Source of the DNA: an uncultured Bacillales bacterium
GTDB lineage: Bacteria > Bacillota_I > Bacilli_A > RFN20 > CAG-449
Length of the DNA: 64,000 bases
Direction of reading: 5' to 3'
Assembly (NCBI GenBank): GCA_946641515.1
Contig: CAMPBT010000003.1
Span: 56,079 to 120,078 of the forward strand
The notes under the pieces were generated by a model that worked only from the letters and a program-made list of their open reading frames with translations, was not told where the DNA came from and searched no databases. Shown here piece by piece: positions 1,341-59,630 of the stretch (positions are counted from its first letter, which is position 1; every line of letters begins with the position of its first letter). Position numbers and translations under genes: made by a program.

Positions 1341-2213
1341 ATGCAGCAATATTTAGATTTATGCAAGAAGATTCTTGAAGAAGGTCAAGTAAGAAAAGAT
1401 AGAACAGGTACTGGTACTATTTCATTATTCGGTGCACAATACCGTGTAGATTTATCAAAAGGTTTTCCTCTCTTAACTACTAAAAAAGTATTCTTTAAGG
1501 GAGTTTTAAAAGAATTATTATGGATTATTTCTGGCTCAACAAACATTCGTCCATTAACTTTAGATAATGTAAAAATTTGGAACGATTGGCCATATAAGAA
1601 ATTTAAAGAATCATCATCTTATAATGGTGAAACAATGGAAGAATTCATCGCTAAAATCAATGCAGATGAAGAATTTGCAAAGGTTTGGGGAGAACTCGGC
1701 CCAGTTTACGGTCATCAATGGAGAAATTTCTTTGGAAAAGATCAATTACTAGAAGTTCAAAAATCTATTAGAGAAGATCCATTCTCAAGGCGTCACATCA
1801 TTTGCGCTTGGAACCCAGCACAAGTAGATGAAATGGCACTTCCTCCATGCCACGCATTTGTTCAATTCTATGTTTCTGGCGATGGTAAGAAATTATCTTG
1901 TCAATTATACCAAAGATCCGCAGATATGTTCTTAGGCGTACCATTCAATGATGCTTCATACGCATGCTTAACAATGATGATGGCAGCAGTATGTGGTCTT
2001 GAACCAGGTGAATTTATTCATACATTTGGAGATGCTCACATTTACTTAGATCACGTTGATTTAATAAAAGAACAACTCTCTAGAGAACCAAGAAAATTAC
2101 CAAAATTATTAATTAAGAGAAAAGTAGATTCAATTACTGATTATAAATATGAAGACTTTGAAGTTGTTGACTATGATCCATGGCCAGCAATCAAAGGAAA
2201 AGTTTCCGTTTAG
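1341..2213 (+). CDS. thyA: thymidylate synthase
   Basis: 290 aa. Conserved ThyA motifs: [12 protein letters not shown] (catalytic Cys region), [12 protein letters not shown] and DAHIY. RBS TTAGGAGG upstream. Confidence 0.95.
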
Positions 2214-2307
2214 TCACTAACTTGTTAGCATTTAAAAGACAAAGACTCAGTTTAATTGACTTTGGACTTCCTAAAATGCTATATTAAGCAAAGCAAAGGA
2301 GATAACT

Positions 2308-3204
2308 ATGTCAAAAGTAGCAGTCGCGACAGATAGTAATGCGGGCATTACTTTTGCTCAAGCAAAAGCAAAAGGTATTTTCATTTTACCTATGCCATTT
2401 ATTATCGACGGAAATGAATACGAAGAAGAAATCTCTCTTTCTCAAGAAGATTTTTATAAAAAACTAATTGGAGATGCAAACATCTCAACTTCTCAGCCAT
2501 CAGCATATTCTTTATCAGAATTATGGACTGAATTATTAAAAGACCACGATGAAATTATTTATGTTCCAATGTCATCTGGTTTATCAAATTCTTGTCAAAC
2601 TGCAATTGCTCTTTCTCAAGAAGAAGAATTCGATGGAAAAGTCCACGTGTTAGATTTACAAAGAATTTCTGTAACTCAGAAATCAGCAGTATATGAAGCT
2701 AAATACTTACTCGACCAAGGTAAATCATGTAAAGAAGTATGCGATTATTTAATGGCAACTAAATTACAAGCAAGTATCTATATTATGGTTGATACTCTCT
2801 ATTATCTAAAAAAAGGTGGAAGAGTTACTCCAACCGCTGCAGCATTAGCAAATTTATTAAACATCAAACCAGTTTTACAAATCCAAGGTCAAAAACTTGA
2901 TTCATACACAAAAGTTTTATCAACTAGAGTAGCGAGAATCAAGATGATTAACGCTATTAAGCAAGATATGGAAACTAGATTCAAAGATGATATTGCAAAC
3001 AATAAATGTGTCTTATCTATGGCATATACAAATAATTTAAATGATGCATTAGATTTTAAGAAACAAATAGAAGAAGCAATTCCTAATCTTCCAGTTGTCT
3101 TTGCAAATCCACTTTCATTATCAGTATCTTGTCATATTGGTCCAGGCGCTCTAGCGGTAACTATCGCTCATTGTGAAGCACCTGTTGATGCATTAAAAGA
3201 CTAA
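2308..3204 (+). CDS. DegV family fatty-acid-binding protein
   Basis: 298 aa. N-terminal VAVATDSNAGI... and overall DegV/EDD-fold pattern. AAGGAG RBS upstream. Intrinsic terminator follows at 3226-3252. Confidence 0.8.
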   Translation: MSKVAVATDSNAGITFAQAKAKGIFILPMPFIIDGNEYEEEISLSQEDFYKKLIGDANISTSQPSAYSLSELWTELLKDHDEIIYVPMSSGLSNSCQTAIALSQEEEFDGKVHVLDLQRISVTQKSAVYEAKYLLDQGKSCKEVCDYLMATKLQASIYIMVDTLYYLKKGGRVTPTAAALANLLNIKPVLQIQGQKLDSYTKVLSTRVARIKMINAIKQDMETRFKDDIANNKCVLSMAYTNNLNDALDFKKQIEEAIPNLPVVFANPLSLSVSCHIGPGALAVTIAHCEAPVDALKD

Positions 3205-34416: not shown

Positions 34417-36450
34417 CTAAGATGCTCTAGCATCGTTTAAATAATATTCTAATGTTTCAATAAGTTTTTTCTTAACTTCTTCAATCTTTAAGTTGTTAAA
34501 TTGTGCTGCTGCCGCTGAGAAGTGACCTCCGCCACCTAATTTTTCAACCAAGTATTGAACGTTAATAGAACCATCAGATCTAGCGGAAATACCAACTTGA
34601 TCTTTACCAATTCTACCAATGACAAAGCAAGCGTTAACCCCGTTTACACTTAAAGATTCTTGTCCAACAATTGAAAGCATTGTTCTATCAATAATATCTT
34701 CTTCACTACTTGTACATACAACTACACCAGTAAAAGGAGTAGTAGCAGTAGCCATAATCTTAACTTTTAATGAATATTCTTCAAATTCTTCTTTTAAGAA
34801 CGAATCAGCAACAGAATTATCTGCACCGAAATCCTTAAGAACAAGTGAAGCATCATAAGTTCTAGAACCAGTTCTAACACGATAATAGTTAGTATCAAGC
34901 AAGATACCTGATAACATCATCGTCGCGTAGTTAGCAGGTAAAATAATTCTCTTTTCGTTGTTAGAAATAATTTCTGCAACAAGTTCAGAAGCTGATGAAG
35001 CAGAAGGTTCAACATAGTTAAATGCTGGGTGTTCAACGAATTCTTCGCCACGTCTATGGTGGTCAACAATTGCAATCTTTCTTGCAGTTTCAACAAGTTT
35101 AGGCCACATTGTTTGAGAAGGTCTATGAACATCAGTAAGAATTAATAATGTTTGAACGTGACATCCTTCAACAGCTTGTGAAGGTGAAATAGTCATTTCC
35201 GCTAACTCTTCTTTAGTAAACATCTGTTTGAATGCTTTTCTAGTTTTAGCTTCAGTTAATTTATCATCGTATACAATTTGAACTTTTGCGCCAAATTGCT
35301 TAGCAAAATAATATAAACCTACAGCAGAACCAATAGCGTCTAAGTCTGCCATAACATGTCCCATAATATAGACGTTAGCAACTTTAGAAGCATCCTTAAT
35401 TAAAGTTTCTAATGATTTAGAAACAATTCTAACTTTAACACGAGATCTCTTACCTTTAGCTTCACTCTTACCACCAATGAAGATTAAATTAGATCCATAT
35501 GGTTGAATAACTGCTTGGTCACCACCACGAGATAAAGCAACATCAAGAGCGCTAGTAGCTAGTTCATTTAATTTAGTGTAATCATCAAGTCCCACAGCAA
35601 AGCCAATTGATAAAGTTAATTCATAATCTTCATCATGAGTATCATTTCTAACTTGGTCAATAATTGAGAAGTTATCATTCATCAATTGTTCATATTTTTC
35701 ATAGTTAGTAATAATTAAATAAGAATCTGCTCTAAATTTTCTAACTAACAATTCATATTTCTTTGCATAGTTAACAATATCTGCTTGAACCTTACCAAGC
35801 ATATCATTAGTCTTAACTTCATCAACAAGAGACATAATATCTTGGTAGTTATCAATTGAGATAATTCCAATTGCAGGAGCATTAGCTTTAGAATATTCAC
35901 TCATAGCATTAAATTCAGTAATGTCTTTAAAAACATATAAGTTAGCTTCTCTTAAGAATTTAACATCATAAACACGGTTGTTGTTTTCAATCTTTACATC
36001 CTGAATTTTATTTTCACGAGCGGATTCTTTTAATTTTCTAAGTTCACTCTTCCATTCAAAAATATTTTTATCAATTAATTTAGTTTGTTCATCTTCAAAC
36101 CATTCATTAACCCAAATAACTTCATCCATTTCATTAACTAAGACTAAGCCAACTTGAGCAAAATCATAAACATCTTGAATGTCATCACCGACAATATCTG
36201 CAGCAGTAACATCACTCTTCAATCTACTTGAAGCAATTCTATGCATAGTTAACCAAATAAAGAATACATCGATAACCATTGATAAAGCTAAAGTGCCAAA
36301 AGATAGATATAAATAAATAGGTTTCTTATCCATCAAATAATATAAAACTGCAAAAACAGTAGTAATCGATGCTTCAACAAAGAAGATCCAGAAATTTAAA
36401 ATCACATACTTTTTAATTAGTTTCTGCATATAATTCTCCTTATTATCCAA
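34417..36450 (-). CDS. gdpP: DHH/DHHA1 phosphoesterase with N-terminal TM and PAS/GGDEF-like region (GdpP-type c-di-AMP phosphodiesterase)
   Basis: 677 aa. Two N-terminal TM helices. DHH motifs (IMGHVMADLDAIGSA...DHH) and DHHA1 GGGH (LGGGGHFSAAAAQ). Synteny gdpP-rplI-dnaB as in B. subtilis. Confidence 0.85.
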   Translation of the reverse strand: MDNKENYMQKLIKKYVILNFWIFFVEASITTVFAVLYYLMDKKPIYLYLSFGTLALSMVIDVFFIWLTMHRIASSRLKSDVTAADIVGDDIQDVYDFAQVGLVLVNEMDEVIWVNEWFEDEQTKLIDKNIFEWKSELRKLKESARENKIQDVKIENNNRVYDVKFLREANLYVFKDITEFNAMSEYSKANAPAIGIISIDNYQDIMSLVDEVKTNDMLGKVQADIVNYAKKYELLVRKFRADSYLIITNYEKYEQLMNDNFSIIDQVRNDTHDEDYELTLSIGFAVGLDDYTKLNELATSALDVALSRGGDQAVIQPYGSNLIFIGGKSEAKGKRSRVKVRIVSKSLETLIKDASKVANVYIMGHVMADLDAIGSAVGLYYFAKQFGAKVQIVYDDKLTEAKTRKAFKQMFTKEELAEMTISPSQAVEGCHVQTLLILTDVHRPSQTMWPKLVETARKIAIVDHHRRGEEFVEHPAFNYVEPSASSASELVAEIISNNEKRIILPANYATMMLSGILLDTNYYRVRTGSRTYDASLVLKDFGADNSVADSFLKEEFEEYSLKVKIMATATTPFTGVVVCTSSEEDIIDRTMLSIVGQESLSVNGVNACFVIGRIGKDQVGISARSDGSINVQYLVEKLGGGGHFSAAAAQFNNLKIEEVKKKLIETLEYYLNDARAS

Positions 36451-36659
36451 TTCGTACTATATATTGAATATATAGTATCCCCGGATTATATTATAACAAG
36501 TATACCACTTATCACTTACAAAGAAAATTCTTTTTGTCTTATGACAAAAGGCTCTTTTCATATTTTTACTATAAAAATGTATAAAAAATCCCATAAAAAC
36601 GTTCAAAAACCTATAGATATGAAATCTTTATATATTTTTTACACATTTGTATACCAGAA

Positions 36660-36840
36660 TTAGCCTTGACTAACTCACTTTTTAAATGTTACATTTAAAG
36701 GGCTTAGCGGAGTAGTTTCTTATTTATTAAGTTACTAAGTCAACAATCCCGGTGCAAACCTGGCTTAGAGTAATAACGAGAGTTAAGTATAGTTTACTAT
36801 ACTTGGCTTTTTTTATTTCCAAGTTAGTAGTCACAGGAAA
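36660..36840 (+). promoter_or_regulatory. 5' leader with intrinsic terminator upstream of the CaCA transporter gene (candidate riboswitch/attenuator, class unassigned)
   Basis: TTGACT (36667) is followed after 17 nt by TTACAT. The roughly 140-nt leader contains two GGCTTAG(N)GAGTA elements and CCCGGTGCAAACCTGG. It ends in hairpin AAGTATAGTTTACTATACTT plus GGCTTTTTTT (about 36795-36826), just before the RBS and ATG at 36852. Confidence 0.4.
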
Positions 36841-36851
36841 GGAGTATAATT

Positions 36852-37868
36852 ATGTGGTGGATCTACCCATTGTATATCGTTGCACTTGTCGCAATGGTCT
36901 ACTTATCAATTAAACTAGGTGACCTAGTTGATTTATTAGACAAGAAAACAAAAGTTTCAGGCGCATTCATTGGTTCTGTTCTTCTTGGAGCAGTAACATC
37001 ATTACCTGAATTATTTACATCTATATCTTCAGTATTATTTGTAAATAACCCAGAACTTGTTATCGGAGACATTCTTGGTTCAGATATCTTTGATATCGTC
37101 GCATTAGTTGTCTTAACATTTATCTTTGCAAGACACTTTTTCGAATCAAAATTAAAATCAAAATTACACTTATTAAATGTCGGTGTATTACTAGTTATGT
37201 ACGCCCTTGCTTTATATGCAGTATTTGCACCAGCAGAATGGCAACTTATGCTAGGTGATATCAACGTTATTTCACCAATTATCTTTATTGGTTACGTTGC
37301 TCTTCTTATCTTATCTCCAAAAGAAGCAGAGGAAGAAAAAGAAGAAACAGACTCAAAACTTACAGTTAAACAAATTTTAGTATTATTTTCCATCAGTGCA
37401 GTATTATTAATCGGCGTATCAATTGGTATTACATTCATAACAGATCTTATTGTAAAAGAAATCCCTTGGCTTGGTGCTTCTGTAGGTGGAGCAATCTTAC
37501 TTGGTGTTGCTACTTCAATTCCAGAAATTATCTCAACTGCTCATTTATTCAAGCTTAGAAATTACGATGCAGGATTTGGTAACATCATCGGTTCTTGCAC
37601 ATTCAACTTCGCAATTATTTCACTTGCCGACTTCTTATCATGGCAAGCAGTCAACGGATCAGTTGTTGCTTCTAGAGGTATTTGGATTTCAACACAGAAT
37701 TCACAATTATTAACATTATTCGGTTTATTCAGTGTTTTACTCTTAGGTGGATTTATCTTAATCAAGAGTTACACAAAACAGATTAAAGGTGTCAAAAGTT
37801 CATTTATCTATTCAGGTATTGTCGCAGCTTTAATTACTACACTTTATATTTTATCTTTAGTATTATAA
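36852..37868 (+). CDS. Ca2+/cation antiporter (CaCA, Na+/Ca2+ exchanger family) membrane protein
   Basis: 338 aa, about 10 TM helices. Two alpha-repeat signatures: GAVTSLPELFTSIS and GVATSIPEIISTAH. Confidence 0.75.
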   Translation: MWWIYPLYIVALVAMVYLSIKLGDLVDLLDKKTKVSGAFIGSVLLGAVTSLPELFTSISSVLFVNNPELVIGDILGSDIFDIVALVVLTFIFARHFFESKLKSKLHLLNVGVLLVMYALALYAVFAPAEWQLMLGDINVISPIIFIGYVALLILSPKEAEEEKEETDSKLTVKQILVLFSISAVLLIGVSIGITFITDLIVKEIPWLGASVGGAILLGVATSIPEIISTAHLFKLRNYDAGFGNIIGSCTFNFAIISLADFLSWQAVNGSVVASRGIWISTQNSQLLTLFGLFSVLLLGGFILIKSYTKQIKGVKSSFIYSGIVAALITTLYILSLVL

Positions 37869-40019: not shown

Positions 40020-40560
40020 CCTCTCACACCACGTAACGTGCCGTTCGGCATTACGCGGTTCAACTTACTTTTAAAGTATGCCTTGACATACTTTCCGCTT
40101 CTTCTCCTTTCCGCTTCTAAGATTTATTTCCTACGTATTGGATATTCTTTGAGATACGCTCATACCTTTTCCTGTCGGATATACCTTAGAAACATACATT
40201 TGTTAAAGCGATGTAAATTGTTTGGTCCTTCCTCTACTGAGTACTATGACCTCTGCTGACTTCCTATAGTTCGCTTTTCTAGGATTTCTCCTCTATAGGA
40301 CCTCACGGGATAAGTTATATATCTTTCCTCGTTTACCTACCTAATTTACGGATTAAGATTACGTTTGCCTTTTGGACTTTATTGCTTTTGGTCAACTTGT
40401 CCACTTAATTCGCCTTGATATTAGGTTTCTATTCGTTAGGCCACGATTTCGCTATCCCTTCTTTTCATGCGTAGTTACCTAGAGGCACTTTGGGAGTCGC
40501 TATCGGGTTGGTCGGCAAATACCTCTCTTCGGACTTTCATCGTAGATATATGACATGCCC
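40020..40560 (-). ncRNA. ORF-free, strand-asymmetric (purine-rich on minus strand) structured region; candidate large ncRNA of unassigned class
   Basis: About 540 nt with no credible ORF; the 73-aa frame at 40038..40259 is low-complexity. Multiple local hairpins, e.g. CGTAATGCCGAACGGCACGTTACG and GAAAGTATGTCAAGGCATACTTT. Bounded by the LRR-gene terminator at 39802-39840 and the rpsR terminator at 40566-40600. Strand assignment is tentative. Confidence 0.3.
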
Positions 40561-59482: not shown

Positions 59483-59630
59483 CCTTTCAGACCTAGTACG
59501 CCCAAAAGGATAGAATAAAATACATTGTGTTAGAATCCTTCCGCTAGCATTACCTAGATCAAGTTATTGGTCCCATAAGTCACACTTATGATCTCAGCCT
59601 AGTTTACTAAGCACCCATACTAAATTGTTT
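59483..59630 (-). promoter_or_regulatory. TPP (THI-box) riboswitch with SD-sequestering terminator hairpin
   Basis: Minus-strand RNA: UGGGUGCUUAG...GGCUGAGAUCAUAAGUGUGACUUAUGGGACCAAUAACUUGAUCUAGGUAAUGCUAGCGGAAGGA matches the THI element consensus (CUGAGA, ACCUGAUCUGGAUAAUGCCAGCG-AGGGA). Expression platform CCUUUUGGGCGUACUAGGUCUGAAAGG plus U7 lies immediately before the ATG at 59474; its 3' arm holds AAAGGA (SD). Confidence 0.85.

Follow-up and report, generated by a model that had tools for sequence, protein, structure and literature searches.

A probable yybP-ykoY riboswitch of the three-way-junction subtype in the leader of a CaCA transporter gene from an uncultured Bacillales bacterium

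A gene for a transporter of the Ca2+/cation antiporter (CaCA) superfamily lies in a 64,000-nucleotide (nt) stretch of DNA from an uncultured Bacillales bacterium (contig CAMPBT010000003.1 of assembly GCA_946641515.1, positions 56,079 to 120,078; hereafter the window), and is preceded by a structured leader that ends in an intrinsic terminator. This raises the question as to what the leader responds to, and whether it belongs to the transporter gene at all. An initial annotation of the sequence had proposed a cis-acting, ion-responsive riboswitch with a terminator platform controlling the CaCA gene, had left its class open, and had judged the resemblance of a GGAGUAG segment to yybP-ykoY riboswitches unconvincing. 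Our analysis supports the cis-acting riboswitch and departs from the annotation on the class: based on sequence, structure and gene context, the leader (36703-36814) is probably a metal riboswitch of the yybP-ykoY class, belonging to a three-way junction (3WJ) subtype without helix P4 and joined to an intrinsic terminator, for which we propose an ON-switch mechanism. The GGAGUAG segment is the L1 loop of this riboswitch, and the match looked weak because the copy is a P4-less 3WJ that RF00080, the Rfam model of the class, does not capture. Positions 36660-36852 comprise the promoter, structured leader, terminator and ribosome-binding site (RBS) of the CaCA gene, within a spacer of about 400 nt that separates it from a divergent gdpP gene. 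Spacer, leader and a terminator close to the RBS are all present where they had been annotated, and the promoter given there as TTGACT-17-TTACAT is the same site as the -35 TTGACT and -10 TACATT boxes listed in Table 1.

A leader RNA of the yybP-ykoY family

The CaCA leader has no match at Rfam gathering thresholds. A permissive scan of positions 36430-36900 (E <= 10), of the kind the initial annotation had proposed, gives as its top match RF00080, the Manganese (yybP-ykoY) family, at 18.3 bits and E 0.0049, with GGAGUAG, GUCAACA and UGGC aligned to the conserved blocks of the model. The Na+, Li+, Mg2+, NiCo and ydaO models do not match the leader even at E <= 10, and the remaining matches at this threshold (a mycoplasma frameshift element, mir-318 and Qrr) are at chance level. 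A new riboswitch class for Na+, Li+, Mg2+ or cyclic di-AMP (c-di-AMP), as the open-class reading would have it, could draw on the sub-threshold Rfam scores and on the divergent neighbour, which encodes the c-di-AMP phosphodiesterase GdpP. It is refuted at the level of sequence and structure by the lack of any Na+, Li+, Mg2+ or ydaO match at E <= 10 and by the fit of sequence, structure and gene context to yybP-ykoY, and we regard it as scarcely credible.

Homologues of the CaCA protein number in the hundreds in metagenome-assembled genomes (MAGs) of Acholeplasmatales, Bacilli and Clostridia, from which 80 species-level loci were fetched. About a quarter of these (22/80) carry the element 130-200 nt 5' of the start codon, as the series GGAGUAG ... 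G(U/C)CAACA ... UGG ... A(C/U)(G/A)AGAC, after which come a hairpin and a U-run. One CaCA ortholog (about 41% identity) stands behind a clean four-way junction (4WJ) yybP-ykoY aptamer with a short P4 (L054, 1309-1419), which itself has no RF00080 match at E <= 1.

A covariance model built from 19 sequences (R1) was searched, and its matches were realigned without the window to give a leave-one-out model of 22 relatives (R2). R2 finds a single match in the 64 kb, at 36699-36791 (46.7 bits, E 5.7e-9); as the sole match to a model derived from other genomes, the complete leader far exceeds what chance would give. Compensatory changes are seen for 27 of the 32 pairs across 22 sequences, with 87% of alignment cells paired vs. 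28-41% when partners are slid, and for 30 of 32 pairs across 85 sequences (89% vs. 27-42%). Because the alignments had been fitted to the model, they are biased towards the structure; that the helices are real is nevertheless supported by the control with slid partners and by how many different pair types occur. RNAalifold on a MAFFT alignment recovered P1.1 and P1.2 alone because hairpin lengths differ among the sequences, a shortfall that was solved by constrained folding of each sequence and realignment to the covariance model.

The constrained folds show one architecture throughout. P1.1, the L1 internal loop and P1.2 lead into a three-way junction with the P2 hairpin, P3.1, an L3 bulge of 7-8 nt and the P3.2 hairpin, and a linker of about 6 nt precedes the 3' strands of P1.2, L1 and P1.1. 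All 24 pairs of the window copy are canonical (Table 1), GGAGUAG spans 36709-36715, and P4 is absent, with just 6 nt (36769-36774) between P3.1 and P1.2. The window departs in few places from the positions conserved in at least 85% of relatives. At 36733, where P3.1 meets the junction, a G has become U. P1.1 is closed by C36708-G36782, flipped on both strands with compensation; in the 82 other distinct relatives this pair is G-C in 81 cases, with a gap in the remaining one. The family linker, CUUAAU/A, matches the streptococcal UNAAA (PMC6649816), the last A of which is a U in the window; the window has GUAAU (36770-36774) where the family has UUAAU or UUAAA, and the first U, here a G, also varies in 3 of 23 relatives.

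Table 1. Features of the gdpP/CaCA region, in window coordinates.
Feature	Position	Strand	Details
Divergent gdpP	34417-36450	-	GdpP-type; GGDEF, DHH and DHHA1 domains
-35 box TTGACT	36666-36671	+	Part of TTGACTAAC, recurrent in orthologous CaCA leaders
Extended -10, TG-t-TACATT	36687-36695	+	TG 36687-36688, TACATT 36690-36695
Leader	~36700 to ATG at 36852	+	
P1.1 5' strand CUUAGC	36703-36708	+	Pairs with 36782-36787
L1 5' strand GGAGUA	36709-36714	+	Directly 3' of P1.1; invariant in relatives
P1.2 5' strand GUU	36715-36717	+	Pairs with AAC 36775-36777
P2 hairpin CUUA/UAAG, loop UUUAU	36719-36731	+	4 bp; weakest P2 in the family
P3.1	36735-36742 / 36761-36768	+	CUAAGUCA pairs with UGGCUUAG
L3 bulge ACAAUCCC	36743-36750	+	On 5' side of P3; contains invariant C36744 and A36745
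P3.2 GGU-GCAA-ACC	36751-36760	+	3 bp
J3/1 linker AGUAAU	36769-36774	+	In place of helix P4
P1.2 3' AAC, L1 3' GAGA, P1.1 3' GUUAAG	36775-36787	+	
Intrinsic terminator	36778-36814	+	Stem 36778-36792/36797-36811, up to 15 pairs; U7 36808-36814
Terminator core stem	36785-36792 / 36797-36804	+	AAGUAUAG / CUAUACUU, then GGC and U7
RBS GGAAAGGAG	36836-36844	+	7 nt 5' of ATG, 22 nt 3' of U-tract
CaCA-superfamily transporter	36852-37868	+	338 aa; PF01699, E 3.8e-19, two stretches; uncharacterised subfamily

The yybP-ykoY riboswitch of Streptococcus pneumoniae mgtA has a three-way junction in which UNAAA replaces P4, followed by a terminator, and requires G16, G17 and A18 (L1 5'), C49/A50 (L3) and A102-A104 (L1 3') for metal binding or response (Martin et al. 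2019, PMC6649816). The equivalents in the window are all kept: G36709, G36710 and A36711; C36744 and A36745; and A36779, G36780 and A36781, the last three being present in 23 of 23 relatives. Kept as well is the pair C36741-G36762 adjoining L3, which is C-G in 82 of 83 sequences, is also a feature of the S. pneumoniae 3WJ riboswitch (PMC6649816) and probably makes a cross-helix A-minor contact. More generally, the window retains every unpaired-core position that is conserved in at least 85% of relatives, namely GGAGUA, ACA (A36743-A36745) and AGA, together with the C-G pair beside L3.

The sequence GGCUUAG occurs twice in the leader (36701-36707 and 36762-36768), as had been annotated in the form of a duplicated element. 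The two copies do not form a repeat motif, one lying in the 5' strand of P1.1 and the other in the 3' strand of P3.1. By chance alone, 180 nt should contain roughly one repeated 7-mer (some 15,000 pairs of positions divided by 4^7), with a higher expectation at 30% GC. A repeat, or a general device for alternative pairing, was considered and rejected, the duplication being absent from orthologs. In the fold of the terminator state, GGCUUAG at 36701-36707 pairs with UUAAGUU at 36727-36733 (the P2 3' strand plus junction). Such a pairing could help to keep P1 from forming in the OFF state; orthologs lack it, and it may be incidental. Folded without constraints, the aptamer part does not surpass shuffled sequence (z = 0.18) and the full leader gives z = -2.1; for an RNA as AU-rich as this one, the energy of single-sequence folds is uninformative.

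RF02617, "Streptococcus sRNA 10" (SSRC10), bears directly on the subtype. It is filed as a small RNA (sRNA) gene, and its consensus (GGGAGUAG ... GUCaaUAC ... CUgAAACAGCgaGaC, then a hairpin and a U-run) plainly marks it as a 3WJ manganese riboswitch plus terminator; the model is based on streptococci and includes their terminator. We tested RF02617 and RF00080 on three orthologous leaders (L079, L057 and L038) and 20 metagenome loci. At permissive thresholds, orthologous CaCA leaders reach up to 27.4 bits on RF00080 and 43.2, 36.9 and 27.9 bits on RF02617, the latter scores being higher without being more significant and none reaching the gathering score of 56. At gathering thresholds, 20 orthologous and 20 metagenome loci gave no leader riboswitch match, and RF00080 (Rfam 15) passes none of 20 other 3WJ copies, including those linked to mntP, GDT1 and P-type ATPase genes. 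In the Rfam version used, RF00080 contains a long P4 region but no pairs for P1. We considered reading the Rfam failure as evidence of absence and rejected this, as mntP-linked copies fail too.

Expression platform and proposed mechanism

A terminator scan finds three terminator-like sites in the region vs. 0.2 expected from shuffles. In the terminator directly 3' of the aptamer, the P1.1 3' strand (36782-36787) lies inside the arm 36778-36792. The same arrangement, with the L1 3' and P1.1 3' strands serving as 5' arm of the hairpin and U-run that follow the aptamer, is seen in about 20 of 25 members of the family. Terminator and folded aptamer are mutually exclusive because of this shared arm. 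The terminator state folds at -32.6 kcal/mol and the aptamer state, by secondary structure, at -15.9 kcal/mol; with P1.1 formed, the terminator is reduced to a remnant of 5 bp and -1.4 kcal/mol. Since the terminator state is far more stable, termination is the likely default, and since the terminator 5' arm is shared with the P1.1 3' strand, the switch would be an ON switch.

In the mechanism that we propose, transcription would start at about 36700-36703, just 5' of P1.1, from the TTGACT / TG-n-TACATT promoter. At high cytoplasmic Mn2+, the ion would bridge L1 (36709-36714 and 36779-36781) and L3 (C36744 and A36745), dock the P1 and P3 arms and lock P1.1 (36703-36708 with 36782-36787), a capture that must occur during transcription. 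With P1.1 formed, only the 5-bp remnant of the terminator would be left, RNA polymerase would read through, and the CaCA transporter would be made and presumably export the excess cation. At low Mn2+, the terminator would form and transcription would stop at U7, leaving a leader transcript of about 115 nt that resembles an sRNA. The 3WJ member that has been characterised responds to Mn2+ with transcriptional read-through (PMC6649816), and by analogy with this homologue the window sequence is expected to behave likewise.

The last point in the mechanism leads to the possibility that the leader is an independent sRNA with its own terminator, unrelated to the function of the transporter. Promoter and terminator together do delimit an RNA of about 115 nt, the streptococcal homologue stands in Rfam as an sRNA, and S. 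pneumoniae SN44 was first reported as one (PMC6649816). Against this, the element is always in sense orientation and immediately 5' of a cation-transporter gene, at about 90 loci and for at least five transporter families; in the window, the 37 nt separating the U-tract from the ATG show no evident second promoter from which the CaCA gene could be transcribed. The terminator also overlaps P1.1 as in riboswitch expression platforms, and so is not that of an unrelated upstream sRNA, which the initial annotation had named as an outcome that would undo its proposal. We consider an independent sRNA highly improbable.

Variation between strains bears on whether the switch is maintained. Among five strain-level contigs, two span the spacer; with alignment artefacts excluded, these two show 13 spacer single-nucleotide polymorphisms (SNPs), all at 36562-36643. 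None falls in the 208 nt of promoter and leader (36644-36851), and the CaCA coding sequence has 19 differences in 1017 nt. This pattern mildly supports constraint on the promoter and leader.

Several observations weigh against the assignment to the 3WJ yybP-ykoY subtype. The window does not reach the RF00080 gathering score of 45 bits and has no RF02617 match at E <= 10. Within the family, its score is the sixth-lowest of 85 matches, most of which lie at 50-89 bits; P2 (4 bp) and P3.2 (3 bp) are both minimal; and the first U of the linker UUAA is replaced by G. The riboswitch is missing from the CaCA orthologs nearest in sequence (about 70% identity; L081-L086 and L092) and present in more distant ones (L093-L095, 65-66% identity), so that its distribution among CaCA orthologs is patchy. 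In the comparison of orthologous leaders that the initial annotation had called for, the element is conserved in 22 of 80 loci. As regards Rfam, the sub-threshold RF00080 score reflects the model and not the RNA, because none of the 20 3WJ copies pass, mntP-linked ones included. A rival reading is a decaying, non-switching relic, its aptamer having lost metal binding and its leader serving only as a constitutive attenuator. Such a relic is suggested by the low family score, by the minimal and AU-rich P2 and P3.2 (ViennaRNA does not choose P2 even under constraints), by the off-consensus linker and unusual P1.1 closing pair, and by the loss of the riboswitch in several close orthologs. Decay is, however, hard to reconcile with a core in which every invariant nucleotide is intact, with a P1.1 change that is compensated on both strands, and with the absence of SNPs from promoter and leader when coding sequence and upstream spacer have accumulated them; moreover, a constitutive strong terminator would silence an intact, conserved gene. 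We therefore regard a relic as very unlikely, and return to the functional 3WJ riboswitch.

Gene partners, ligand and surroundings

The genes that follow the riboswitch elsewhere give independent support for the manganese class. Among the CaCA loci, R1 matches minus-strand elements directly 5' of mntP (PF02659) in L036 and L043. A metagenome scan by an RNA-only pattern returned 120 loci, at which R2 confirmed 78 matches and 66 downstream open reading frames (ORFs) were assigned; the pattern was derived from CaCA-linked seeds, so the proportions of partners are indicative only. MntP is the commonest partner (32 of 66 ORFs) and Na_Ca_ex (CaCA) the second commonest (10), followed by P-type ATPases (8), GDT1/UPF0016 (4), and TerC and CDF (1 each); the remainder are miscellaneous, some of them perhaps ORF-picking errors. 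The four major partner families described for the class are MntP, TerC, UPF0016/GDT1 and P-type ATPase (bioRxiv 10.1101/2024.09.30.615890), and CaCA is not among them. In the literature searched we found no link between CaCA and the manganese riboswitch; the search did not cover Dambach 2015, Price 2015 or Barrick 2004, so an earlier mention is possible. The ten metagenome CaCA partners are YrbG-like and about 25% identical to the window protein, which means that two CaCA subfamilies stand under the riboswitch. As an RNA, the leader is an unremarkable case of a known class, overlooked by Rfam; what is uncommon is its partner gene, and the recurrent partnership with CaCA genes is a modest novelty.

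Further loci show the range of contexts. Both L036 (100-666, minus strand, and 1441-2451, plus strand) and L043 have a CaCA ortholog without a riboswitch of its own as the neighbour of mntP, about 800 nt from the divergent, riboswitch-controlled gene. L136 has two riboswitch copies in tandem units, one (310-411) before TerC (565-1329) and the other (1475-1570) before GDT1/UPF0016 (1631-2314). Confirmed 3WJ copies also precede genes for ABC_tran (L166, L116), OAD_beta (L184, L192), Band_7 (L128, L176), CitMHS (L200) and LysR (L167) proteins; these unusual partners may reflect mis-assignment by the simple ORF picker, or they may head longer operons. Near a riboswitch-controlled mntP in L168 lies a RAGATH-18 RNA (1517-1589, minus strand; 72.6 bits).

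The window protein is a distant CaCA member that carries the alpha-repeat motifs TSLPE and TSIPE; its nearest solved structure is NCX_Mj (E ~5e-6), and its NCBIfam matches are all far below cut-offs. Given the riboswitch, we predict that it is an exporter of Mn2+, possibly also of Ca2+. CaCA-, MntP- and ATPase-linked copies share one consensus in L1, L3 and the linker, and we found no L1 or L3 difference between CaCA-linked and MntP-linked copies that could serve as a signature of ligand specificity. The physiological ligand is most likely Mn2+, with Ca2+ as a minority possibility. Manganese has two points to contend with: in vitro, the affinity of the characterised 3WJ aptamer is higher for Ca2+ than for Mn2+ (PMC6649816), because of which the ligand at the CaCA leader is not certain, and no CaCA member is established as a bacterial Mn2+ exporter in the literature searched.

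It is thus conceivable that the same fold reads a different signal, namely that CaCA-linked 3WJ copies are physiological sensors of Ca2+, or of Ca2+ and Mn2+ together, and control Ca2+ extrusion by antiporters. The partner does belong to the Ca2+/cation antiporter superfamily, with NCX_Mj as nearest structure, and CaCA genes of two subfamilies recur as partners; the sole characterised 3WJ member not only has the higher affinity for Ca2+ but is compacted by it and controls a Ca2+/Mn2+ ATPase (PMC6649816, PMC11672702). However, copies linked to MntP, the commonest partner, have an identical metal-binding core; A36745 preserves the adenine that confers Mn2+ selectivity through its N7; and read-through in S. 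pneumoniae is activated far more by Mn2+ than by Ca2+, both in vitro and in vivo. Calcium sensing is therefore unlikely; if true, it would give the first riboswitch with Ca2+ as its biological signal. A milder and likelier proposal, with about as much to be said for it as against it, is that the two unrelated CaCA subfamilies are unrecognised, riboswitch-marked Mn2+ exporters beside MntP, TerC, GDT1, P-type ATPases and CDF.

For the window, assignment to the class closes the question of an orphan leader, which becomes a recognisable Mn2+ riboswitch. It also exposes an annotation gap, since the Rfam 15 manganese model misses the 3WJ subtype and leaves such switches unannotated in MAGs of gut Bacilli and Clostridia. 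Both the YrbG-like partners (10 of 66) and the window subfamily (22 of 80 loci) are nominated as candidate Mn2+ or Mn2+/Ca2+ exporters, and since the characterised 3WJ aptamer binds Ca2+ too, the CaCA-linked loci are a natural place to ask whether the class reads Ca2+.

The surroundings of the leader add some observations. In many orthologous CaCA leaders, more of the promoter than the -35 hexamer is conserved, as the motif TTGACTAA(C) (36666-36674 in the window), which lies about 150-200 nt 5' of the CaCA start in L001-L003, L006, L008, L009, L011, L013, L015 and L065. Four of these loci (L001-L003 and L013) keep the motif without a riboswitch, which suggests either repeated loss of the aptamer with retention of the promoter, or an additional protein-binding site. 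A clean deletion of the element in L001-L003, where it is absent, was considered and dropped, the pairwise alignment being unconvincing. In the gdpP/CaCA spacer, a second terminator-like hairpin (36530-36551; 9 bp, then CUCUUUUCAU) has no obvious gene to terminate; the spacer SNPs lie just 3' of it. Elsewhere in the window, the RNAs that reach their Rfam gathering scores, all on the minus strand, are tmRNA (127 bits, 853-1226), pieces of group II intron D1-D4 (97 and 47 bits, 40225-40484) and a thiamine pyrophosphate (TPP) riboswitch (61 bits, 59518-59628).

Comparison with known systems

The closest known counterpart is the S. pneumoniae mgtA riboswitch. Like it, the window RNA has P1, P2 and P3 but no P4, GGAGUA and (G)AGA in L1, C-A in L3 with a C-G pair beside it, a short A-rich linker in the place of P4, and a terminator directly 3' of the aptamer as expected of an ON switch; the host is likewise of Firmicute type, and the partner likewise comes from a family known for Ca2+ transport. 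It differs in that the partner is a secondary CaCA antiporter and not a PII-type ATPase, in its much shorter P2 and P3.2, in its linker GUAAU instead of UNAAA, and in a P1.1 closing pair that is C-G and not G-C. RF02617 shares the 3WJ and terminator consensus, but is filed as a gene and sRNA instead of a cis-regulator and has no match in the window.

Other known riboswitches are more distant. The 4WJ yybP-ykoY members (Lactococcus lactis yoaB, Escherichia coli mntP/alx and Bacillus subtilis yybP/ykoY) share with the window RNA the L1/L3 core sequence and the arrangement of P1.1/P1.2 and P3.1/P3.2, and have a ligand-stabilised P1.1 that turns the gene on, as we propose for the window. Unlike them, the window RNA is without P4, and whereas the E. 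coli members act on translation, it would act on transcription termination. The Mg2+ M-box, NiCo, Na+ (DUF1646), Li+ (nhaA-I) and ydaO riboswitches also stand 5' of cation transporters, often with a terminator platform, but their core motifs are unrelated to that of the window, in keeping with their lack of a match there.

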